Notes: generated from the sequence alone by a model not told the origin. Counted from the first letter of the stretch, positions 5,210 to 45,085 are shown. The stretch is 64,000 bases of DNA from Thermoplasmata archaeon (GCA_022749895.1 JAKIWS010000004.1:6195-70194), one strand, 5' to 3'. Program-made: numbers and translations.

Positions 5210-7372
5210 ATGCTGTCCTTCACGGCGGATCGCCCGCCCGCGATTCCACGTCTCGGCCTCACCCGCTCGGGCCGTTCTGGTCGGCGGTGCTTGGCGGCCG
5301 GGATCCTCGTCCTGCTCGTCGCCGGATCTGTCGGGCCGCTGTTGACGCGCCCTATCTCCCCGGGAGCGCCTCCGATCCCGGCGGCCGGCGCGGCGCGATC
5401 GCCGCTCGGTCTCGCTCCGATTCACGCCAGCGGACACCTCGCGGCGACCACACCCCGCCCCTCGGCCGTGAGCCCGTACACGTTTCACACGACCGAGCCG
5501 GCTCCCGCGGGCGTCACCGACTACGGCGTCGACGCCGCTCAGAACCCCTACTACTACTCGACGTCGATGTTCCAGGCGTCGGCCTCGATCCGGAGCTTGC
5601 TCACCTACAAGTCCGGGGCCGGGACCGCGGCGTACGACATGACGTTCCAACTGAACGTGGTGCTCCACCTCACGAACGGACCGAACGAGCTCGACTACTG
5701 GATCCAGAACGTCGTGAACATCAACACCTCGGCCAAGTCCGTGTACTTCCTGAACAATGTCTGGAACCTATCCTCCTCCGCCGGCCACCTCAACGCGGGC
5801 GACGTGTCGGGGAACGGGACGATCAACTCGATTGGGTCGACCACGTGGTACGCGGCCGTCGCGGCCTACGGCCTGCCGGGCAACTTCGTGTACCTGAGCT
5901 ATCCCACGACGGTCTCCGTGCGCGTCATTTCGAGCGACGCGACCGGGACCCCGCACGTCGCGTTCCAGTACGCGGACGGTTTTGGATGGGTGACCTACGA
6001 CAATGTGAGCGTCAACGCGGCGCGCGGTTGGGGCGACTCCGGATTCTGGGTCACGGGCTACCAGTACACCCCGATCGGGGTGTTCTTCGACGCCGAATTC
6101 GATTTCACCGGGACCTCCAGCCCCGGATCCACCGAGAACGACGTGCTCTCCAACCTGGACTAGACGCTCGAGCGGTGGAACGGACACAACTTCCCGGCGG
6201 TCCCGATTGCGTACAACTTCGGGAGCAACCCGGGGGTGGTGCTCCAGAACTTCGTCTCCTCCCGCGCCGTCGGCGCGGCCGACGGAACCTTGTCCGCCCA
6301 CGAGGTCAACGGCACCGGGTTGCTCGGCCTCCTCTACGATGCCCGCAACGTCTCGATCCTCAATGCCTCGATTCCGACGGTTCCCGCCGGCACGCTGTAC
6401 GTGGGGGGAACTCCCCACGCCTACGTTGGGAACGACGTGAACCTCACCCTCGGTCCGGGCACCTACCATTTGAGGCTCGACGGTCCGGCCGGAACGGTCA
6501 CCTCCCTCAACGTCAGCGTGTACCGCGGCGAGTACCTCGCGATCGTCCTCGCTCGGCCGTCGTACTACGTGGCGACGTTCACCGCGGTCGGGCTCCCGGG
6601 AGGAACGCCCTGGTCGGTCACCGCTTCCGGCGTGGTCCAGAGCGGGATGTCATCCTCCCTCGTCTTCAACGAGACCAACGGGACGTACACGTTCGTCGTC
6701 GCCCCCGTCGCCGGATACGTCGCCGCCATCTGGGCGGGAACTTTTGTCGTGAATGGAACGAACACCCTGCACGTCGTCAACTTCTCGGCGTTCCTTTACA
6801 TGGTCGATTTCGTAAGCGAGAACCGGCCCGCCAACCTGGCGTGGACCATCGCGATCGGGGGCTCTCAAGCGACGGGGACCGGGACCACGCTCGGCTTGCA
6901 CGAACCGAACGGGACCTTCACCTACATCGTCACCACGGAGAACCGCTACGAGGCGAGCCCGGCCGCGGGGACTCTTACGGTGGCGGGAGCCGGGGCCTCG
7001 ACCTCGGTCTCCTTCGCGCTACGTCCGGGCTACCTGACCGGTTCGGTCGCTCCCCTCGCGGCGGTCGTCACGATCGACGGGAGCGCCATCGCGACGGCCG
7101 ACGGCGTGTTCAACGTGACGCTCGCTCCGGGCCCGCACACGATCACAGCGAGCGCGACCGGGTTCCAACCGTTCTTCGCGAACGAGAGCGTCACCCCGGG
7201 GAACGCGACGGACGTGCCGATCACCCTCGCCGCGCTCCCGGCGCCCGACGACGGGAGCACGGCGAGTTCTCTGCCCTCGTGGGCGTTCGTCGGGGTAGGG
7301 ATCGCGGTCGTTGCGGGGGCCGTGATCGTCGGCGGGGCCTACGTGGTCTCCCGGCGCCATCGGGGTCGCTGA
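5210..7372 (+). pseudogene. Thermopsin-family (peptidase A5) exported protein with beta-sandwich repeats and a C-terminal TM anchor, interrupted by one in-frame TAG at 6161..6163
   Basis: ORFs 5135..6163 and 6236..7372 are in the same frame and are separated only by TAG. Thermopsin-like blocks lie before the stop (APAG, FQLNVVL, YWIQNV, NNVWNLS, FDAEFDF) and continue after it (PAVPIAYNFG). There is an N-terminal signal/TM (CLAAGILVLLVAGSV) and a C-terminal TM + RRHRGR. It could also be a sequencing error or a read-through. Confidence 0.6.
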
Positions 7373-35804: not shown

Positions 35805-38570
35805 TTACTCTTCCCCGTCCGGGGGACGCTCCACCCCCGGGGCCGGCCGCGGGGAGCGCGGGGCCGGAGGTCGGCGTCGACGGCGGTCCTGCTGACGGAG
35901 AACAAGGAGCGCGACGACCGCGATCGCCTCCACCGCGAGGGCCGCGATCAGCCCGACGAGCCCCCAGAGCGGAACGGCGGAACCCGAGGCGGCGTTCGCG
36001 CCGGTCGAGGAAGTCGCCACCGTCACGTTGACCGCGCTGGAGGTCGCGGCGCGTCCGACGCCGTCCACGACCGTGGCCGTGAATGCGAACACTCCGGGGG
36101 CCGTCGGGGTGAACACGATGACGCCCCCCGTGCCGACGAGCTTCGCAGAGGCCCCGCCCGACGCCTCGTACCAGTTCACCACGAACGGAGCGGTCCCACC
36201 GGAAACGTTGGCCGCGAGCTCGGTGCCGGACCCGACGGTCGTGTCACCCCCGCTCGTCACCACCAGGGTGGGCAGCGGGTTCACCGTCAGATTGTCACCG
36301 AAATTCCAAGTGCCGCCCGTCGCGTCGGTGACCGTCAAAAGGACGGCCAGGGGTCCGGTCGCGTTCGCGGAGATGTTCTGCGCGAGGGAGCAGGAGCCGG
36401 ACGGACCCCGCGGCCCCCCGGCGATCGACCACGCACAGCTGTACGGCCCGACGCCCCCGGCGATCGTGGGGGTCAGCCGGAACGACATTCCCAGGTCGGC
36501 CGCGCTGGGCGAGCTCGCAAATGTGGCGGCCGGGTCGGGGAGAACCAGGACCGTGGCGTGGCCGGCCCCGGGGGGATCTCCCGCGGCGTCGCTCACCAGA
36601 ATCGAGACGCCGAACGACCCCGTCGCCGTCGGGCGACAGCGTAACGCCCAGCCCGAGGACGTGGCCGTACAGGCCGACGCGACCGTGGGGGTCCACGTGG
36701 CGGTCACAGCTCCCCGGCCGCCCACGGCCACCGCGGTGAAGGTGACGCTCTCGCCCAGGTCGATCGCGACGACGGACGACACGACGGCCGCGGCCAGCGG
36801 GGCATCCCAACGGTCCACGGTGACGGTCTCCACGCTGAAGGGCCCGGGAGGCTGGTACGACGACCCGACGAGAAGGTGGTCGACGAACGCGGTGAGGGTC
36901 CCGTTGGTCGACCGGTAGAGAAGCTCCTCCGTTGTTTGAGACTGGATGAAATTGATGCTGAGGATCTGCGCCGCATTCGCGCTGATCCGCTCCTCCCTCC
37001 CCGCGTAGACGCCCGACGCTCCGAGTCGCTCGTCCAGGGCGTAGCTCACCCCGTTCGCGGCGAGCCCGGTTTCGTTCCACCCTTGGACGACGTTGAGGGT
37101 GTCCGAGGTGAAGTTCCCGTAGATCGGGTAGCCGCCGCCGGTGTTCGACGTCTCGACGAACGACCCACCCAGGTCGACGCCGAAGGAGAAGCTGTACGAC
37201 CTTGACGTGGACCGAACGCTCGAGGGCGTCGTCAGATTCGTCCAGAATTGCATGGTGGAAGACCCGGTGAGGTTGTCCCAGCTCGAGGACATCGTCGGGA
37301 CGGTCTCGTTGTTCACGAACCGCTCAAGGACCTGCGTCGAAACGTTGGTCGTTCCCCCCGCTCCGGTGAACGTCGACGAGTACGCGTAGCCGATACTTCC
37401 GGCGTTGTCGTACACGTTCGAGGCCGGCGTCGTCGTGTGGTCGGCGATCGTGGGCAGGACGTCGCTCGTAGCCAGGGCGGGCGCTCCGGTCTTCGAGGTC
37501 GTCACGAACAGCCCTCCCATGACCAACCACGGGCTGCTCGGGTCCCGGCCCTGGACCGTGATGGTGATCGAATGCGTCCCCTCGAGCAAGCCCAGCGCCG
37601 CGGTCAGGTCGACGCGGTACGGACGGTCGTTCAGCGTGAACGTCGCGGGAATCGGGCGCCAGAGGAACAGGTCGAGGCCCCCCGTGTTGAGGTACGGGAA
37701 CGGTAGGACCGTCGCGATCGGCGTTCCGTCGCTGCTCACTTCGACGAGGCGGAACGCGGACTCCGTCGGTTCGCTCGCGTACCAGAACTCGTCGGCGCTG
37801 AACCCGTAGGCGTACAGTTCCAACGTCGCGTTGGTCGCGTTGGACGGTACCGTGACGTTGGCCGAAAGGGTCGCAACGCCCGGCTTGACGTAGGCCGAGG
37901 TCCAGATCGGAAGCACGACGTTCGCAACACTCGGGGGAGACTGCCCGGTGGGAACCGGGAACAGCGATACAGTCACGGTGGAGGTGAACGAGCCGCTGAT
38001 GATCGCCGCCGACAAGAGGAACGTCACGTTGACCGTTCCCTGGAACAGCGCCGAGTACTCCGTGAGGTCCTTCAGGACCACCCAGCGTCCGTACTCCGGC
38101 GTCGTTCCGAACAGGATCGGCACTCCGTCAACGTACGCCCGGTACGACGAGTCGTAGACCGAGCCGTACACGGTTCCCGTGTAGTTCAATTCGATCAGCG
38201 CGAACGGACCGGCGGGCGCCGCGAAGTCGAGATAGGAGCAGCACCCCGTCGTGTTGGCCGCCACGGTCTCGACCACGGGCGTGGTCGGCGGTAGGATCGG
38301 CGCAGGGCTGGCGAAAATCGCGGAGTTCGGAGGTCCCCCCGACGAGGGGGCGGTGTGGTTGGCGAGGCGCATGGCCGAGTCCATGGGACGCGAGAATTCG
38401 GCTGGGGCGAGGGCCGGCAGGAGAGCTGGCCGCTTGATGGTCGCTCCGCCCAGGGCGTGATTCGCAGGCAGCGGTGGCACGGCGGCCCCGGCCGTCGCTC
38501 CGAAGGTGGGCCACGCGGGCAATGCCACGAGGAGCGCGATGAACAAGGTCGCCCCGAGCAGGGCGCGCAT
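35805..38570 (-). CDS. Exported PNGase-A-like domain protein with PKD-like repeats and a C-terminal TM anchor
   Basis: Signal peptide MRALLGATLFIALLVALPAWP. The block YDSSYRAYVDGVPILFGTTPEYGRWVVLKDLTEYSALF resembles the PNGase A family (from memory). Three PKD-like repeats (GG.GPYSCAW..., VTDATGG, VVDGVGR). C-terminal TM + RQQDRRRRR. Confidence 0.55.
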   Translation of the reverse strand: MRALLGATLFIALLVALPAWPTFGATAGAAVPPLPANHALGGATIKRPALLPALAPAEFSRPMDSAMRLANHTAPSSGGPPNSAIFASPAPILPPTTPVVETVAANTTGCCSYLDFAAPAGPFALIELNYTGTVYGSVYDSSYRAYVDGVPILFGTTPEYGRWVVLKDLTEYSALFQGTVNVTFLLSAAIISGSFTSTVTVSLFPVPTGQSPPSVANVVLPIWTSAYVKPGVATLSANVTVPSNATNATLELYAYGFSADEFWYASEPTESAFRLVEVSSDGTPIATVLPFPYLNTGGLDLFLWRPIPATFTLNDRPYRVDLTAALGLLEGTHSITITVQGRDPSSPWLVMGGLFVTTSKTGAPALATSDVLPTIADHTTTPASNVYDNAGSIGYAYSSTFTGAGGTTNVSTQVLERFVNNETVPTMSSSWDNLTGSSTMQFWTNLTTPSSVRSTSRSYSFSFGVDLGGSFVETSNTGGGYPIYGNFTSDTLNVVQGWNETGLAANGVSYALDERLGASGVYAGREERISANAAQILSINFIQSQTTEELLYRSTNGTLTAFVDHLLVGSSYQPPGPFSVETVTVDRWDAPLAAAVVSSVVAIDLGESVTFTAVAVGGRGAVTATWTPTVASACTATSSGWALRCRPTATGSFGVSILVSDAAGDPPGAGHATVLVLPDPAATFASSPSAADLGMSFRLTPTIAGGVGPYSCAWSIAGGPRGPSGSCSLAQNISANATGPLAVLLTVTDATGGTWNFGDNLTVNPLPTLVVTSGGDTTVGSGTELAANVSGGTAPFVVNWYEASGGASAKLVGTGGVIVFTPTAPGVFAFTATVVDGVGRAATSSAVNVTVATSSTGANAASGSAVPLWGLVGLIAALAVEAIAVVALLVLRQQDRRRRRPPAPRSPRPAPGVERPPDGEE

Positions 38571-39050: not shown

Positions 39051-39509
39051 CTAGCGGCTGGAACTCGAGGCCGCCGAGCGGGGGACGGTGAGCCGGAACC
39101 GACTGCGGGGTCCGTCGTACTCGAACTTTGCCTGCGCGAGCAGGTCGCGGCCGAGGAGCGCGCCGAGGCGATCACCCGGTAGTGGAGCCTCCAAGGCCGT
39201 GACCTCCAGACCCAAGTTGTGGTTGAGCCAGAAGCGCACGCGGTACTCCGGGGCCTCGAGGTCGGTCGACGACGGGGTGTCGATCTCGACGAGCCCGACC
39301 GGCGTGAGGCGGAGGCGGGCCGCGAGGCCCCGTTGGATCAAGCTGCGGCCGGCGCCGATATCGATGAGCGCCCGGACCTCTTGGGGAGGTGGCACCGGCT
39401 GGCCGGTCCGTCGCAGGGCGGCTTCCGCGTCGGCGCTCACGCCAATCCGCACGGGCAGGATCGCCCCCTCGTCCCGTAGATCGCGAACGGCGACGGTGAA
39501 GGACGGCAT
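39051..39509 (-). CDS. Retropepsin-like (clan AA) aspartyl peptidase homolog with a DIG variant of the DTG/DSG motif
   Basis: ALIDIGAGRSLI at the expected position, and a later GALLGRDLL (the G-hydrophobic-LG-x-D-hydrophobic-L flap/dimer motif typical of the family). Start at ATG 39509. Confidence 0.6.
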   Translation of the reverse strand: MPSFTVAVRDLRDEGAILPVRIGVSADAEAALRRTGQPVPPPQEVRALIDIGAGRSLIQRGLAARLRLTPVGLVEIDTPSSTDLEAPEYRVRFWLNHNLGLEVTALEAPLPGDRLGALLGRDLLAQAKFEYDGPRSRFRLTVPRSAASSSSR

Positions 39510-39510
39510 C

Positions 39511-39759
39511 CTACGGCGAACGCCCGAAGAGGTCGAGGCGAAGTCGGTTCGCATCCGGGCGGATCTGCCGGACGAAGAAAGGGACCGGACCGAAGGCATC
39601 GTACCCGGCCCGGATCGCCTCGGCCTCGGTCGAGAAGATGCCGACGACCTGCGCCCCCCGGATCAACACGTACTTTCCCTGGTCGCTCGCGAGGAGGCGC
39701 TCGCTCTCGCGCCCGAAGCACGCGTACTCTTCGCGCAGGACGCGATGCACGCTGGTCAT
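39511..39759 (-). CDS. Small (82 aa) protein coupled to the retropepsin-like gene (possibly DUF5678-like)
   Basis: From ATG 39759: MTSVHRVLREEYACF...GKYVLIRGAQVVGIFSTEAEAIRAGYDAFGPVPFFVRQI. Its TAG stop is 1 nt from the next ATG. Confidence 0.45.
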   Translation of the reverse strand: MTSVHRVLREEYACFGRESERLLASDQGKYVLIRGAQVVGIFSTEAEAIRAGYDAFGPVPFFVRQIRPDANRLRLDLFGRSP

Positions 39760-39860
39760 GCGCGACCGGGCAACCCCGACCGAATTCGGCCCCGGGCGGT
39801 CGATGGAAGGCGGCGTCGACGAATCCGAGGAAACCCTCTCATAGTACCAAACCAACTACG

Positions 39861-40526
39861 ATGGCGGGGAGCAGGCGCTTGGAGCTCGAAACGGTTCCGG
39901 GGCTCGTCCCCTCGATCCTCGTGACCCTCCAACCGAAGGAGTCCGTGTACTGCGAACACGGGATCATGCTGTTCAAGGACCCGACGGTGGGGGTCGGGCG
40001 AAAGACGATCAAATCCGGGGGTTTCCTCAAGACGATGGAACGGAGCACGGTCGGCGGCATCCCGTACTTCCTGACCGAGTTCATCGGGCCGGGCGTCGTG
40101 GGATTCTCGCGCGACGGCGTCGGCGAGGTCCGCGTGGTGGAGCTCGCGGCGAACGAGGAGCTCGACGTCGCCGAAGGGTCGCTCATCTGCGCGGAGAGCC
40201 ACATCCCCTACGACATGCAGTACGTAAAAGGGACCCACCGACCGGGACGGATGATCGGCTTCTGGATGGACCGGCTCACCGGACCGGGGAAGGTCGCGCT
40301 CCACGCCTACGGGAACGTGATCAGCATGTCGCTCGCCGCCCACGAGACCGTCACGGCCGACATGGGGGCGCTCCTCTACAAGAGCGGCAGCGTCACGGCG
40401 GCGACCCAGAATTTGCCGTTCGGGGGTGGTCTCCTGGGCCGCCTCGAGGCGTACGAGGTCCTCCAGCTGACCGGGCCGGGCAAGATCGCGTTGCAGAGCA
40501 TCGACCCGAAGCAGCCGCACTACTAG
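39861..40526 (+). CDS. AIM24/TIGR00266 (DUF124) family protein, paralog 1
   Basis: Family pattern: GEVRVVELAANEELDVAEGSLICAE...LTGPGKVALHAYGNV...L..HETVTADMGALL...LQLTGPGKIALQS. Confidence 0.8.
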   Translation: MAGSRRLELETVPGLVPSILVTLQPKESVYCEHGIMLFKDPTVGVGRKTIKSGGFLKTMERSTVGGIPYFLTEFIGPGVVGFSRDGVGEVRVVELAANEELDVAEGSLICAESHIPYDMQYVKGTHRPGRMIGFWMDRLTGPGKVALHAYGNVISMSLAAHETVTADMGALLYKSGSVTAATQNLPFGGGLLGRLEAYEVLQLTGPGKIALQSIDPKQPHY

Positions 40527-40540
40527 GAGCGACGGAAACC

Positions 40541-40729
40541 ATGCCGATCCCGGAGGAGTTCGTCAAGAAGCGGACCGAAGTGACGATCAGCCGCGCCACG
40601 CTCCAGGAGATCAACTGCAAGAGCTGCGGCGCGAAGATCAAGCCCACCAACATCCAGGGCGGCTACGCGAAGTGCGAGTACTGTGGCGGGGCGTACGCCC
40701 TCGCCGTCGACGGGCAATCGGTGGTCTGA
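40541..40729 (+). CDS. Small Zn-ribbon protein (62 aa) embedded between the AIM24 paralogs
   Basis: CKSCGAKI...CEYCGG (CxxC-x18-CxxC). It starts 14 nt after paralog 1 and ends 9 nt before paralog 2. Confidence 0.6.
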   Translation: MPIPEEFVKKRTEVTISRATLQEINCKSCGAKIKPTNIQGGYAKCEYCGGAYALAVDGQSVV

Positions 40730-40738
40730 GGTGGCGCG

Positions 40739-41401
40739 ATGAAGGCGGACACCGTGGGCGGCATCACGCCGGCCGTCCTCGTGCAGCTTCGGCCCGGCGA
40801 GAAGATCCTCGCCGCCCACGAGATCATGCTCTACAAGGAGGGGACGGTCAAGCTCGCCCGCCGGACCCTGAAATCCCTCGGCGTGAGCACGACCCACATG
40901 CTCGCGCTCCGCGCCCAGGGGGACAGCGAGGAGAGCTACTTCCTCGCCGAGTTCGAAGGACCGGGCAGCGTGACGTTCTCGCGCGACAAGGCCGGCGAAG
41001 TCCGTATCGTCGAGCTCGCGGCGGGACAGACGATGCGCCTTCGGCAGGGCCACATCATCTGTTTCGACCCGACGGTGAAGTACAATCCCATCGTGCTCCT
41101 GCAGTACCCGTCGCCGACGCCGAACGAGAACGGGCAGCGCCCGACCGTCTACGTGTTCGCCGACGAGCTCACGGGACCCGGGACGATCGTCTTCCAGTCG
41201 ATCGGCAACATCCTGAGCTTCACCTTGGGCCCGCAGGAGAGTCTGCGCACCTCGGTGAATGCCCTCCTGGCGGTGGGCGGGACCAACCGCTTCGCGCTCA
41301 ATTGGCTCGCGCCGGGGCAGATGGCGGGGAACGTGAGCACGGCCGTGCCGGTCATCGACGTCACCGGACCCGGCGTCGTGATGGTGCACAGCGGATGGTG
41401 A
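40739..41401 (+). CDS. AIM24/TIGR00266 family protein, paralog 2 (most divergent)
   Basis: GEVRIVELAAGQTMRLRQGHIICFD...LTGPGTIVFQSIGNILSFTL...VTGPGVVMVHS. Preceded by the SD-like GAGGTGG. Confidence 0.75.
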   Translation: MKADTVGGITPAVLVQLRPGEKILAAHEIMLYKEGTVKLARRTLKSLGVSTTHMLALRAQGDSEESYFLAEFEGPGSVTFSRDKAGEVRIVELAAGQTMRLRQGHIICFDPTVKYNPIVLLQYPSPTPNENGQRPTVYVFADELTGPGTIVFQSIGNILSFTLGPQESLRTSVNALLAVGGTNRFALNWLAPGQMAGNVSTAVPVIDVTGPGVVMVHSGW

Positions 41402-41408
41402 GCGACGC

Positions 41409-42062
41409 ATGAAGGTCGACGTCAAGGGCGAGATGATCCCGGCCGCGCTCGTGGAGCTGGCGGCCGGCGAAGAGGTCTACTGCGAGGGCGGGCTCCTCCT
41501 CTACAGCGACCCGAGCGTGGGATTCCAGATCCGCTGGATGACCCAGGGAGGGGTCGCGGGCGCGATCAAGCGCACCTTGCTCGGCGGGGTCCCCTTCCAC
41601 ATGCACGTCTTCACCGGACCGGGCTACGCCGCGTTCAGTCGCTCGCGTCCGGGCGAAGTCCGGCAGATCGAGCTCGCCGCCGGCCAGACGATCGATGTGG
41701 CGGAGCATTCCCTCCTCCTCGCTTCCAACACCGTTCAGTACAACTCCTACTACGTCCCGGGGACCGGCCGCGTCGGCCGGATGATCGGTTTCTGGATGGA
41801 ACAGTTGACCGGCCCCGGCACCATCGTCTACCAGGGCCACGGCAACATCCTGAGCTTCAACCTCAAAGCCGGCGAGGGGATGGAGATCGACCACGGCGCC
41901 CTCCTGCTCAAGGACCCGTCCGTCACGCTCCGAGCGTACAATCAGCCACTCGGGAGCGGGCTGCTCGGCCACGCCATGAGCTTTGAAGCGCTCCACGTCG
42001 AGGGTCCCGGCCAGTTGCTGATCCAGACGCTCGACCCGACGCGCGCCGGACCCGCGGCCTGA
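41409..42062 (+). CDS. AIM24/TIGR00266 family protein, paralog 3
   Basis: GEVRQIELAAGQTIDVAEHSLLLAS...GRMIGFWMEQLTGPGTIVYQGHGNILSFNL...VEGPGQLLIQT. Shares GRMIGFWM(D/E)(R/Q)LTGPG with paralog 1. Preceded by the SD-like GGTGAG. Confidence 0.8.
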   Translation: MKVDVKGEMIPAALVELAAGEEVYCEGGLLLYSDPSVGFQIRWMTQGGVAGAIKRTLLGGVPFHMHVFTGPGYAAFSRSRPGEVRQIELAAGQTIDVAEHSLLLASNTVQYNSYYVPGTGRVGRMIGFWMEQLTGPGTIVYQGHGNILSFNLKAGEGMEIDHGALLLKDPSVTLRAYNQPLGSGLLGHAMSFEALHVEGPGQLLIQTLDPTRAGPAA

Positions 42063-42115
42063 CGTTCCGTCCGGGGACAAAGTACATCCTTTCGGCGGCC
42101 CCTTCGCCGGAGGGA

Positions 42116-42670
42116 TTGGGAGTCGTCCGATCGGTGGCGCAGATCGACCTCGTCACGCTCACGGCGATCGGGACGTGGGTCCTGGTGATCGGGACGCTGA
42201 TCCTGATGTACTGGCAGACCCGCCAGGCGCAGCGGCTCAACTCCGCGAACGCCGTGATGGCCCTGCGGGAGCGGTACGACACCCCGCAGCTGCGTCGGAC
42301 CCGCCGGGCCCTCGCGAATTCGCTGCTCAGCGAGCCGGGGGAGACGTTTCCCCGCGCCGAGCTGCTGACGTTCTTCGAGCTCCTGGGCGTCATGACGCAC
42401 CGGAAGCTCCTCGACCGGGAACTCGTCTGGAACTCGTTCGGCGGCTGGGTCTCCAGCTACTACTTCATGCTCACGCATCCGCACGACCGGATCGCGGCGG
42501 TCCGGGAGCGGATGGGCGACCCCCTTGCCTTCGCCGAGTTCGAGTGGCTCTACCACACCGTCCAGGCGATCGACCGAAAGCGACTCGGGCCGACGGAGGC
42601 GAACCTGATCGAGTCGCGGGAGGAAGCGCGGTCGATCCTGCACCACGAGAGCGAACTCCCGCTCGAGTAA
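42116..42670 (+). CDS. N-terminal TM helix + helical domain protein, last gene of the AIM24 cluster (possibly DUF4760-like)
   Basis: TLTAIGTWVLVIGTLILMYW TM, then an all-helical domain (LRERYDTPQLRRTRRALANSLL...). TTG 42116 or GTG 42134 follows the SD-like GGAGGG. Confidence 0.5.
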   Translation: MGVVRSVAQIDLVTLTAIGTWVLVIGTLILMYWQTRQAQRLNSANAVMALRERYDTPQLRRTRRALANSLLSEPGETFPRAELLTFFELLGVMTHRKLLDRELVWNSFGGWVSSYYFMLTHPHDRIAAVRERMGDPLAFAEFEWLYHTVQAIDRKRLGPTEANLIESREEARSILHHESELPLE

Positions 42671-42713
42671 CGCGACCAGCCGGACGAGAGGGGCCCGCGC
42701 CTCCCCGTCTAAC

Positions 42714-43472
42714 TCAGTAGCTGAAAGTGAACGACAGCGCCTGCTGTTCGACCGCGCGAACCACGCCGCCGTCGTCGAGATATACGTAGAGCACCACGGT
42801 CAGCGTGAAGCTACTGAGGACCGCGGGGTGGTTCAGGACCATCCGGATGCCCGGCCCGTAGATCGCGCCGGTCGCGAGCGTCACCGGCGACGTGGCCGCG
42901 GTCACGGTCACCCCGTTCCGGACGAGGATGTGGACCGCGCTGACGATCGGATTCCCGGCGCCCACCCGTTGCAGGTAGAGCTGGACGTTGCGCGCCAGGG
43001 CCAGCGTGCCGCTCGACGCGACGAGGTCGAGCCGGGCCCGGAACGTGTGGCCGACCCCTACGGGCACGACCGTGGAGAAATGGAGCGCCGGAAGGAACGC
43101 GAGCCGCGTACGCGTCCCACATCCGCCCGGCTCGGTGACGGCGACCGCACCTCGCGCGGCTCCCGCGACGACCGGCACCGTGCCGACGGCCGTCGACGCG
43201 CAAACTCCGAGGCCCGCGCGCGTGGTGAGTCCCGTGAGCAGGGTCCATGGTGTGACGGCGGTGGCGTTCACGTGGCTCGCGTACTGAACGAGCACCGTTC
43301 CAAGGGACGACGGCAGGAACAGCCCGGCGAGAACGACGACGGCCCCGACGAGGCTCAGATACCGCGCCGCGCGACGCGCCGCGCGCGGACGGAACGGCCT
43401 CCGAGGGGGCGCATCTCCCTTCTCGCGCGCCCGAAGCACCGACCCTCGAAACCGGTCGTTCCATCGAACCAA
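42714..43472 (-). CDS. Exported/anchored Ala-Thr-Val-rich beta protein, paralog C of a three-member family
   Basis: Basic N-terminus + TM (RRAARYLSLVGAVVVLAGLF), one Cys pair, and a C-terminal TVVLYVY strand. Shares the architecture of 43546..44274 and 44402..45085. Confidence 0.5.
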   Translation of the reverse strand: MVRWNDRFRGSVLRAREKGDAPPRRPFRPRAARRAARYLSLVGAVVVLAGLFLPSSLGTVLVQYASHVNATAVTPWTLLTGLTTRAGLGVCASTAVGTVPVVAGAARGAVAVTEPGGCGTRTRLAFLPALHFSTVVPVGVGHTFRARLDLVASSGTLALARNVQLYLQRVGAGNPIVSAVHILVRNGVTVTAATSPVTLATGAIYGPGIRMVLNHPAVLSSFTLTVVLYVYLDDGGVVRAVEQQALSFTFSY

Positions 43473-43545: not shown

Positions 43546-44274
43546 ATGGCAAACGAACTCCGGGCAAGCCCAGCTTTGGCCAAGACGAGATCGCGCGTAC
43601 GATGGCTGTCGGTGCTGACGGGATTGGCCGTCGTACTCGTGGCGGGCGTCGTCGTGGCCGACGTCGTGTTGAACTTTACGACGAGCACCGGCGTGGGCGC
43701 GAACACGAGCGCTCCGTTCGAGTTCCAGAACGGCGCGAACTACGCGACGGCCCACGGGTTCGGGTTCGTGACCAGCGCCTACCCCGGCGGGAGCTCCCCG
43801 GGGGTCAGCGTCACGACGACGATCAGCGGCATCGCGACCGTCCCGGTATCGATGTTCGACGTCAACGAGCTCATCACCGCGGTCCTGACGACGAGCACCG
43901 CCCACGTCGGGAACGTCTTTGTCCCGTCGGCCGCCGCGGTCGCCGTGGCCGGGCTCATCTGCGCCTACGCGTTCGTCTCGACGGCCCTCCCGTCGGCCGG
44001 CGCGGTGGCGGTCGCCGGGGCCCCGGCGGGCTGCGCTGCGACGCTCCCGACGCTCGGGGCGCTCTCCTCCGGCTGCTCCGGCGGAGTGGCGAACGTCGCC
44101 GCGGTCAACCTCGTGGCGGGAACCGTCACGGGCTCGATCGCCGCGTCGTGCACCGTCCCGAGCGCGACGGCCGCCAGCACCATCGTCCTGTACGTGAGCT
44201 ACTACATCGCGACGAGCGGCCCGGTCGCCGCGACGACGCTCAATTCGTTCGCGATCCCGATCACGCTGCCCTAG
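43546..44274 (+). CDS. Exported/anchored Ala-Thr-Val-rich beta protein, paralog A
   Basis: RSRVRWLSVLTGLAVVLVAGVVVADVVLNFTT...SAPFEFQNGANYATA. Two Cys pairs. C-terminal IVLYVSYY. Confidence 0.55.
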   Translation: MANELRASPALAKTRSRVRWLSVLTGLAVVLVAGVVVADVVLNFTTSTGVGANTSAPFEFQNGANYATAHGFGFVTSAYPGGSSPGVSVTTTISGIATVPVSMFDVNELITAVLTTSTAHVGNVFVPSAAAVAVAGLICAYAFVSTALPSAGAVAVAGAPAGCAATLPTLGALSSGCSGGVANVAAVNLVAGTVTGSIAASCTVPSATAASTIVLYVSYYIATSGPVAATTLNSFAIPITLP

Positions 44275-44401: not shown

Positions 44402-45085
44402 ATGGTCGATTCTGGCCTCGGACCCTCGGCGCGCCGGCGCCAGGTCCGCTGGCTCGCGGTCGCGATCACCCTCGTGGCGGTCGGCACCGTGGGGGCAGCT
44501 TGGGCCGATGTGGTCCTGATGTTCCAGACCGGCGAAAGGGCCGGCTCGGTCGGCTCCCCTTTCGTCTTCGCCAACGGGGGCAACTACGCCTCGGCGAACG
44601 CCGAGGGGCTCACGACGAACACGTATCCCAACGCCCAAAGCGTCTCCGTCACCGCCGCGATCAACGGAGCCGCGGGAGCGTACGGGACGTACCTGCTGGA
44701 CACCCTCGAGATCGTGGGGAACATCACGACCGGGGCGACCTGGCATCTCCATCTCGATGTGACGACGGCGCTCGTCGGCACCGGCATCAACGCGGCGTTC
44801 GTTAGCTACTGCACGTCGGCCCCGACGGGGGTCCCGGATACTGGCGTGACGCTCGCGAGCGGTACGGATGCGAACGGAAACCCTTGGGCGATCTTCGGTC
44901 CGACCTGCGCCGGCACCCATTTCGCGCACTCCCTCCTCGCCGTGGGCCCGGGGGGAGCCGTGACCATCGTCGGACTGACCTCGGGGACGACGGTCGTGTA
45001 CGTATCGTTCCTGCTGGCGGTCACGAACACCGGAGCGACGACGACCACGGCGGCGGCACTGACGCTCGTAGCGAGCTCGCCGTGA
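44402..45085 (+). CDS. Exported/anchored Ala-Thr-Val-rich beta protein, paralog B
   Basis: RRRQVRWLAVAITLVAVGTVGAAWADVVLMFQT...GSPFVFANGGNYASA aligns by eye with paralog A. C-terminal TVVYVSF. Confidence 0.55.
   Translation: MVDSGLGPSARRRQVRWLAVAITLVAVGTVGAAWADVVLMFQTGERAGSVGSPFVFANGGNYASANAEGLTTNTYPNAQSVSVTAAINGAAGAYGTYLLDTLEIVGNITTGATWHLHLDVTTALVGTGINAAFVSYCTSAPTGVPDTGVTLASGTDANGNPWAIFGPTCAGTHFAHSLLAVGPGGAVTIVGLTSGTTVVYVSFLLAVTNTGATTTTAAALTLVASSP

Follow-up and report, generated by a model that had tools for sequence, protein, structure and literature searches.

A conserved four-gene module of three AIM24 paralogs and a small zinc-ribbon protein in Thermoplasmata archaea

Why would an archaeon keep three diverged copies of one gene side by side, with a gene for a very small zinc-ribbon (Zn-ribbon) protein wedged between them? 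The question is raised by a 64,000-nucleotide stretch of DNA from a Thermoplasmata archaeon (GCA_022749895.1 JAKIWS010000004.1:6195-70194; hereafter the window), which belongs to a metagenome-assembled genome (MAG) of about 69 % GC. An original prediction made from this DNA had proposed a five-gene module at 39861-42670, consisting of three tandem AIM24/DUF124 paralogs (here A1, A2 and A3), an embedded Zn-ribbon gene (Zn) and a gene for a protein with a transmembrane (TM) helix (here ORF5). All five open reading frames (ORFs) are present on the plus strand where they had been placed (39861-40526, 40541-40729, 40739-41401, 41409-42062 and 42116-42670), and public records already label the module genes ‘AIM24 family protein’ and ‘hypothetical protein’. 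Our comparison across genomes showed that the conserved unit is made of four genes, A1-Zn-A2-A3 (39840-42062), and not five. It is a real, conserved and lineage-specific variant of the known but functionally dark AIM24 family, and in this Lutacidiplasmatales-like soil archaeon of the Thermoplasmata the four genes appear to form a vertically inherited operon.

The family assignment of the three paralogs held up in a Pfam search of the ORFs. A1 (39879-40526, 215 aa), A2 (40739-41401) and A3 (41409-42062) scored 120 (E 1.5e-34), 74 and 108 bits against PF01987 (AIM24), for which the cutoff is 25.7, whereas the TIGR00266 label that they had also been given did not (35.4, 17.5 and 30.2 bits respectively against a cutoff of 96.6). 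Their translations contain the motifs on which the assignment had been based, GEVR-x-(V/I)ELAA, LTGPG…GN(V/I) and a terminal (T/E)GPG, as well as the segment GRMIGFWM(D/E)(R/Q)LTGPG that is common to A1 and A3; in A2, the most diverged copy, another segment replaces GRMIGFWM. The AlphaFold2 model of A1 is all-beta (pLDDT 88.8, pTM 0.85) and places each of the three GPG motifs (residues 70-72, 135-137 and 199-201) in a hairpin between two strands, consistent with three repeats. A Foldseek search with this model against the PDB (entries to April 2026) matched 1PG6 and 1YOX (E 2e-11 to 2e-9, TM-score 0.65-0.77) with no significant match beyond these two, and sequence search agrees with the result. 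Both are structural-genomics entries without assigned function (1YOX is PA3696 and 1PG6 is SPyM3_0169), their monomers consist of three TRAP-like beta-sandwich repeats, and a homotrimer with a flat ring face has been modelled for AIM24 (PMC6677890). The A1 model thus has the three-repeat TRAP-like beta-sandwich fold of AIM24. None of the three paralogs has a TM segment and their median pI values are 5.8, 6.4 and 5.9 (A1, A2, A3); the subunits are probably soluble and mildly acidic, and the Zn-ribbon protein (median pI 8.4) mildly basic. The literature agrees with the original prediction that prokaryotic AIM24 has no defined function (PMC6677890, PMC6393860): no bacterial member has a known physiological role (PMC6677890) and archaeal arCOG01907 is counted among conserved uncharacterised proteins (PMC6393860). 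SpyM3_0169 appears as a helix-turn-helix protein in the list of a Paratox preprint, which is at odds with the 1PG6 fold and was not used. Some orthologs carry additions that the window's proteins do not have. A2 in L002, L015, L030, L050 and L053 contains a variable-length low-complexity loop rich in Gly, Met, Asn and Phe before the last GPG hairpin, and some A3 proteins (L021, L025, L027) end in GxxLLGxLG-type tails like those of bacterial TIGR00266 proteins.

Is this arrangement found beyond the window? One genome per GTDB species was scanned with the N-terminal motif of the Zn-ribbon protein and the ORFs at each locus were classed by paralog-specific hidden Markov models (HMMs). The scan gave 43 loci, every one of them in Thermoplasmata. 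The gene order is A1-Zn-A2-A3 in about 33 of these and Zn-A1'-A2'-A3 in nine (L031, L033, L036, L041, L042, L044, L046, L047 and L051), where A1' is shortened (206 aa) and A2' is strongly diverged (~31 % identical to A2). The variant order is seen in one branch within the clade, and any given genome shows only one of the two orders. The Zn-ribbon gene adjoins AIM24 genes in 42 of the 43 loci, the last one (L037) stopping at a contig edge, and all three AIM24 classes are present as far as the contigs reach, L035 being the one exception; the other incomplete loci are explained by contig ends or frameshifts in low-coverage MAGs. A distant homolog of the Zn-ribbon protein (57 % identity, HMMER) led to a further locus, L141, in a Thermoplasmatota MAG of 34 % GC, where the order is again A1-Zn-A2-A3 with the Zn-ribbon gene adjoining AIM24 and a 4-nt overlap between A2 and A3. 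Likewise, A2 orthologs at 49-66 % identity led to five unrelated neighbourhoods with the four genes in one order: AIM24 (215 aa), a small ORF (58-65 aa), AIM24 and AIM24. Three AIM24 genes with a Zn-ribbon gene therefore stand together in about 45 related genomes, in the predicted order in about 33 of the 43 loci and in L141. The flanks vary, with an SDR gene and Kelch/PKD proteins, FtsZ, the DNA polymerase small subunit, or RadA and an aromatic lyase next to the module, and no further gene family stands beside it in more than nine of 48 loci. Among the compared loci the closest relative of the window comes from the acidic-forest-soil MAG AcS5-107, which is listed among the Lutacidiplasmatales (TMEG) genomes (PMC9287336). 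As to individual flanking genes, an SDR gene lies 5' of A1 in L001 and L009, and in two MAGs (L007/L008, 927-3464) a RadA (Rad51-family) gene near the module contains an intein with a LAGLIDADG endonuclease domain.

The four genes A1, Zn, A2 and A3 of the proposed five-gene module are thus conserved, and ORF5 (42116-42670, plus strand) is not. Its product begins with a hydrophobic helix (Kyte-Doolittle maximum 2.23 over 19 residues) and matches DUF4760 (PF15956, 41.9 bits, E 1.4e-10, cutoff 25), on which we found essentially no literature beyond one paper that mentions it incidentally. A five-gene system, in which an AIM24 hetero-oligomer acts with a Zn-ribbon adaptor and a DUF4760 membrane protein, is suggested by the position of ORF5 on the same strand, 53 nt 3' of A3 and preceded by a Shine-Dalgarno (SD)-like GGAGGG, by a like arrangement in L016, and by the membrane tethering of plant AIM24 proteins (PMC6677890). 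However, among about 48 other loci L016 is the only one with an ORF5/DUF4760 homolog 3' of A3, which leaves the supposed membrane component absent from about 46 of 48, the closest relative included. That relative, L011, is syntenic with the window on both flanks, but its A3 is followed after 90 nt (5522-5613) by a homolog of the gene at window 42714-43472, where the window has 650 nt (42062-42714) containing ORF5. This interval is an insertion/deletion polymorphism, and ORF5 is no more than a chance neighbour. About eight loci have an unrelated gene of ~160 aa in its place, the fifth ORF of L001 and L009 is also unrelated to it, and ORF5 appears to have a TATA-like box of its own (AAAGTACAT, 42079-42087, plus strand, read from the sequence). 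The neighbourhood data thus largely refute the five-gene system, to which we would give a very slim chance.

The anatomy of the four genes points to a common transcript. The close spacing noted in the original prediction is real (gaps of 14, 9, 7 and, before ORF5, 53 nt in the window), and so are the SD-like motifs (GGAG/GAGGTG-like) 5' of the genes. In 31 loci the median gaps at the three junctions of the module are 15, 8 and 5 nt with a maximum of 32 nt, and fourteen junctions are 4-nt overlaps. A TATA-like box, CATAGTAC, lies at 39840-39847 (plus strand) with a purine-rich stretch 5' of it. In most of 34 aligned loci an AT-rich box (CATAGTAC, TAATAT or TTTTATG) is found about 45 to 30 nt 5' of the first gene, and the AT peak of the upstream alignment falls at positions 25-36 of 70 against a background of ~68 % GC; within the module such a box recurs 5' of the first gene only. 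This box is the putative operon promoter. Since the junctions are short or overlapping and the box precedes only the first gene, A1-Zn-A2-A3 has the appearance of a translationally coupled operon. The box also bears on the start of A1, which had been placed at the ATG at 39861 (giving 221 aa). The start is most likely the TTG at 39879, because the NCBI annotation (P0098) has 215 aa, because orthologs trimmed to the equivalent position have 215-216 aa where the gene order is the common one and 206 aa where it is the variant, and because the TATA-like box is too near the ATG. Scans for bacterial promoters and terminators and for Rfam families gave nothing informative. ORFs antisense to the AIM24 genes (e.g. 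40523-41425, minus strand, 300 aa) were rejected as high-GC artefacts whose clustering across loci does no more than mirror the true genes.

How old are the three copies? Orthologs are 49-87 % identical, whereas paralogs within one genome are 27-55 % identical (identity matrix). In the sampled loci A1 orthologs share 64-86 % and A3 orthologs 60-85 %, while A1 and A3 are 45 % identical to each other and A2 is 35 % identical to both. About 90 clusters orthologous to A2 were found at 46-77 % identity. All those with a taxon label are archaeal, and the labels read Thermoplasmata, Thermoplasmatota or Euryarchaeota save for one Nitrososphaerota. A neighbour-joining tree resolves three clades as (A2,(A1,A3)). 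Because each of these ortholog clades holds both gene-order types and generic AIM24 sequences fall outside, the triplication appears to predate the diversification of the clade, with all three copies kept since. Recent local duplication is ruled out because the fixed order and the Zn-ribbon gene recur across many genomes. Outside the clade we found no tandem arrays of AIM24, nor the recurrence in actinobacteria for which the original prediction had suggested looking: the gene was single-copy within +/-4 kb in 84 of 84 bacterial and haloarchaeal loci. This sample was drawn from 11 plasmid matches (five regions inspected) and 80 chromosomal loci of a single bacterial subfamily (Mycolicibacterium/Chloroflexota/Solirubrobacterales), and triple arrays may exist elsewhere, for example in Streptomyces. 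In two Halorussus megaplasmids (L059, L060) an unannotated AIM24-like ORF stands beside an SDR oxidoreductase gene; this ORF may be a pseudogene or simply be absent from the PLSDB gene table, and the likeness to the SDR gene 5' of A1 in L001 and L009 may be coincidence. The conservation seen within the Thermoplasmata clade would be expected of an obligate hetero-oligomer that works with a Zn-ribbon partner.

The fourth component is a protein of 62 aa (40541-40729, plus strand) that consists of an N-terminal peptide, MPIPEEFVKKRTEVTISRA, followed by CxxC-x15-CxxC. The two knuckles (C26-x2-C29 and C45-x2-C48) form a rubredoxin-like pair about 15 residues apart, as in two-CxxC Zn ribbons, and the four Cys are invariant in 37 aligned sequences. 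The peptide MPIPEEFVKKRTEVTISRA is near-invariant across orthologs. Because residues 2-19 are kept almost without change although synonymous changes accumulate freely in their codons, the gene is, on this codon pattern, clearly protein-coding, and purifying selection acts on the N-terminus of its product. Yet AlphaFold2 gives this constrained part no secondary structure when the protein is modelled alone (pLDDT ~51-54 for residues 1-20, against ~68-76 for the ribbon), a profile typical of peptides that become ordered only when bound to a partner. Among 5.8e9 proteins the family amounts to 80 clusters at 90 % identity, all of them standalone proteins of 56-75 aa and none with a Pfam domain. Among 1.84e9 representative proteins only three full-length members were found, the remaining matches being to the generic ribbon half. 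The named Zn-ribbon families HypA, TFIIB Zn_Ribbon_TF, zinc_ribbon_6, LysW and RpoP all scored below threshold, the best being HypA at 18.8 against 28.9 bits. Because all HMM scores are sub-threshold, the names given to these proteins by JGI, L37AE/L43A, RPC12/RpoP and Elf1 (e.g. P0205, P0215, P0247), have no support. These searches show a very small, clade-restricted family, whose members would be dedicated partners of the AIM24 proteins. A fusion hints that the pairing of Zn ribbon and AIM24 may recur elsewhere: P0198 (L054, 1383-2243), the only AIM24 protein on its contig, begins with a CxxC…CxxC ribbon, and the contig is bacterial and planctomycete-like by its PSD-domain neighbours. In another AIM24 protein, P0203 of a Geminicoccaceae bacterium, the N-terminal domain is GYF_2.

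What could four such proteins build together? Each AIM24 subunit would be soluble and all-beta, with three TRAP-like beta-sandwich repeats that each carry a GPG hairpin, and AIM24 proteins presumably form closed trimeric rings of nine domains; we take the assemblies of 1YOX and 1PG6 to be trimeric. We propose that A1, A2 and A3 would be three different subunits of one heterotrimeric ring and that the Zn-ribbon protein would join them in a single copy as a fourth subunit, with its N-terminal peptide folding onto the ring and the Zn ribbon left exposed. Three unlike subunits would break the three-fold symmetry and therefore offer a unique docking site to a single-copy partner, with a 1:1:1:1 stoichiometry that the tight or overlapping gene junctions would help to hold. 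Because the retained genes are paralogs of a presumed trimer, their order is fixed and their translation apparently coupled, the partner seems dedicated to them, and a peptide predicted to be unstructured is nevertheless constrained, we give a single A1·A2·A3 hetero-ring with one Zn-ribbon subunit docked by its N-terminus a slightly better than even chance. A fungal AIM24 protein self-interacts (PMC13075794). The complex might serve as a non-enzymatic scaffold or adaptor in the cytosol, where it would bind other proteins and stabilise them. We consider it improbable that an obligate, asymmetric A1·A2·A3 ring machine with the Zn-ribbon protein as its ‘key’ has a lineage-specific core function in Lutacidiplasmatales/TMEG archaea, for example in ligand- or RNA-sensing regulation or in organising a membrane or division complex.

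Several observations weigh against this proposal. The trimeric state of AIM24 that has been published is a modelled one (PMC6677890). The weakest step is the scaffold or adaptor role, which would be a pure analogy with distant eukaryotic homologs, and the housekeeping neighbourhoods of the module suggest no client. In bacteria, AIM24 encoded beside TerD hints at other roles, at least as the work of Anantharaman et al. 2012 is cited in PMC5822837. One locus, L035 (Thermoplasmata TL1-5.bin109), reads Zn-A2-A3 and lacks A1 in the 4 kb upstream, although with a coverage of ~2.4x for this MAG an assembly artefact is possible. Finally, the P0198 fusion is weak evidence for the pairing because the Zn-ribbon domain is promiscuous.

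Could the paralogs instead work apart? A1, A2 and A3 may be sub-functionalised homotrimers, separate rings with separate tasks that are merely co-transcribed, with the Zn-ribbon protein serving one of them only. Homo-oligomers would be the family default since AIM24 is single-copy in all 84 loci sampled elsewhere; in addition EOP-1 homomultimerises (PMC13075794) and A2 is far more diverged than A1 and A3. Genes with independent functions would, however, be expected to scatter or to be lost differentially in genomes of ~2 Mb, and what we see is near-perfect co-retention, a fixed order and overlapping junctions across genomes of 34-69 % GC. We regard separate homotrimers as unlikely. A regulatory pair is another possibility. 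The TRAP protein of B. subtilis is antagonised by anti-TRAP, a zinc-binding protein of 53 aa, and on this precedent an AIM24 ring would bind a small ligand or RNA and the Zn protein would switch the binding. AIM24 repeats do resemble TRAP (PMC6677890), and a mildly basic Zn-ribbon protein stands here next to acidic ring subunits. The same net acidity is a weak argument against RNA binding, the Zn motif reads CxxCGxx where anti-TRAP has the DnaJ-like CxxCxGxG, there is no Rfam element or conserved leader near the module, and no target operon is linked to it in 48 loci, which makes such a pair improbable.

A third alternative, an anti-virus defence or toxin-antitoxin-like cassette, would account for a small set of genes that includes a small Zn-ribbon protein and has no assigned function. 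Its surroundings speak against it, as the neighbours are housekeeping genes (FtsZ, DNA polymerase small subunit, RadA, purine synthesis) with no integrases or transposases among them, and inheritance appears vertical, the paralog clades being present in both gene-order lineages. Neither PADLOC nor PHROG gave significant matches: in PADLOC-DB v2 the AIM24 proteins and ORF5 had no match and the Zn-ribbon protein noise only (E>0.008), and the PHROG scan had no significant match for the AIM24 proteins. We consider a defence cassette extremely unlikely.

AIM24/DUF124 proteins are widespread and occur in bacteria, archaea, mitochondria, the plant endoplasmic reticulum (ER) and fungal cell-fusion signalling (PMC6677890, PMC13075794, PMC6393860). 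In the literature searched we found no description of a three-paralog AIM24 operon or of its Zn-ribbon partner. If the hetero-ring proposed above were correct, a ring of three subunits would be a natural dissection into non-equivalent faces, and MPIPEEFVKKRTEVTISRA would be a defined binding peptide with which to probe how a partner docks on AIM24 rings. The small, soluble complex would be suited to co-expression and structure determination. Since these archaea have yet to be cultured and offer no accessible phenotype, the near-term value of the module is structural and biochemical rather than physiological. The analysis also corrects the database labels L37AE, RpoP and Elf1 for the Zn-ribbon protein.

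Other genes around the module were also noted. On its 5' side, a retropepsin-like aspartyl-protease ORF (39051-39599, minus strand) is divergent from the operon and gives a sub-threshold match to PF13650; homologs of it lie beside the module in three other loci. It is overlapped by an ORF of 114 aa (39511-39855, minus strand) that had no matches. Further away, at 35805-38570 (minus strand), is the gene for a secreted protein of 921 aa that contains a PNGase A domain (PF12222 at 110 bits) and many N-x-S/T sequons and ends in a TM helix and an Arg-rich tail. On the 3' side two paralogous proteins of ~230 aa (43546-44274 and 44402-45085, both plus strand) combine a basic N-terminus and a hydrophobic helix with bodies rich in Thr, Ala and Gly. 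Neither has a Pfam match, and both may be proteins of a pilin or surface type. The gene at 42714-43472 (minus strand) is grouped with this pair, and the syntenic copies lie in L011.

How then does the module compare with known systems? To the AIM24/DUF124 family (PF01987; arCOG01907) it clearly belongs, since the paralogs pass the Pfam cutoff and the A1 model superposes on 1YOX and 1PG6, and its three GPG-hairpin repeats match the three TRAP-like beta-sandwiches of the family. More than 93 % of AIM24 members are single-domain proteins (PMC6677890). The sampled ones are also single genes, whereas here three old paralogs in a fixed order are joined by a dedicated Zn-ribbon gene. TIGR00266-type and plant AIM24 proteins have a Gly-rich or TM C-terminal tail, which the module proteins, all below the TIGR00266 cutoff, do not have. 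The bacterial Ter-associated AIM24 genes are like the module in being encoded beside presumed partner proteins; within about +/-5-8 kb of the module in ten loci (L001-L010) there was no Pfam match to TerD, TerB or TerC. The eukaryotic members, yeast Aim24 (MICOS), Arabidopsis PAWH1/2 (Hrd1 complex of ER-associated degradation) and Neurospora EOP-1 / Podospora IDC4, share the domain. Rather than acting as enzymes, they attach to other protein complexes and stabilise these, and either self-association or a modelled trimer has been reported (PMC3975624, PMC6677890, PMC13075794). They differ from the module in being membrane-associated or having long disordered extensions, and identity is below ~30 %. 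We know of no Zn-ribbon partner of a eukaryotic AIM24 and of no three-paralog ring described for these proteins.

Two further systems offer a likeness outside the family. The Bacillus TRAP/anti-TRAP pair also combines a ring of TRAP-like beta-sandwiches with a zinc-binding protein of ~50-60 aa. TRAP, however, assembles as an 11-mer from single-domain subunits and has tryptophan and RNA as its ligands, and anti-TRAP has a DnaJ-like zinc motif, whereas the module has three repeats per subunit, Zn motifs reading CKSCGAK and CEYCGGA, no sequence similarity to the pair and no regulated leader; it does not qualify as a TRAP system. The sliding clamp PCNA is a homotrimeric ring in most lineages, but in one group of archaea, Sulfolobus, three paralogs make up the ring, and this heterotrimer has non-equivalent partner-binding sites. 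Fold and function are unrelated, and the Sulfolobus PCNA genes are not in one operon, unlike those of the module, so that the analogy would be one of evolutionary logic only: a ring of identical subunits elsewhere, and in one archaeal lineage a ring that may be built from three unlike ones.

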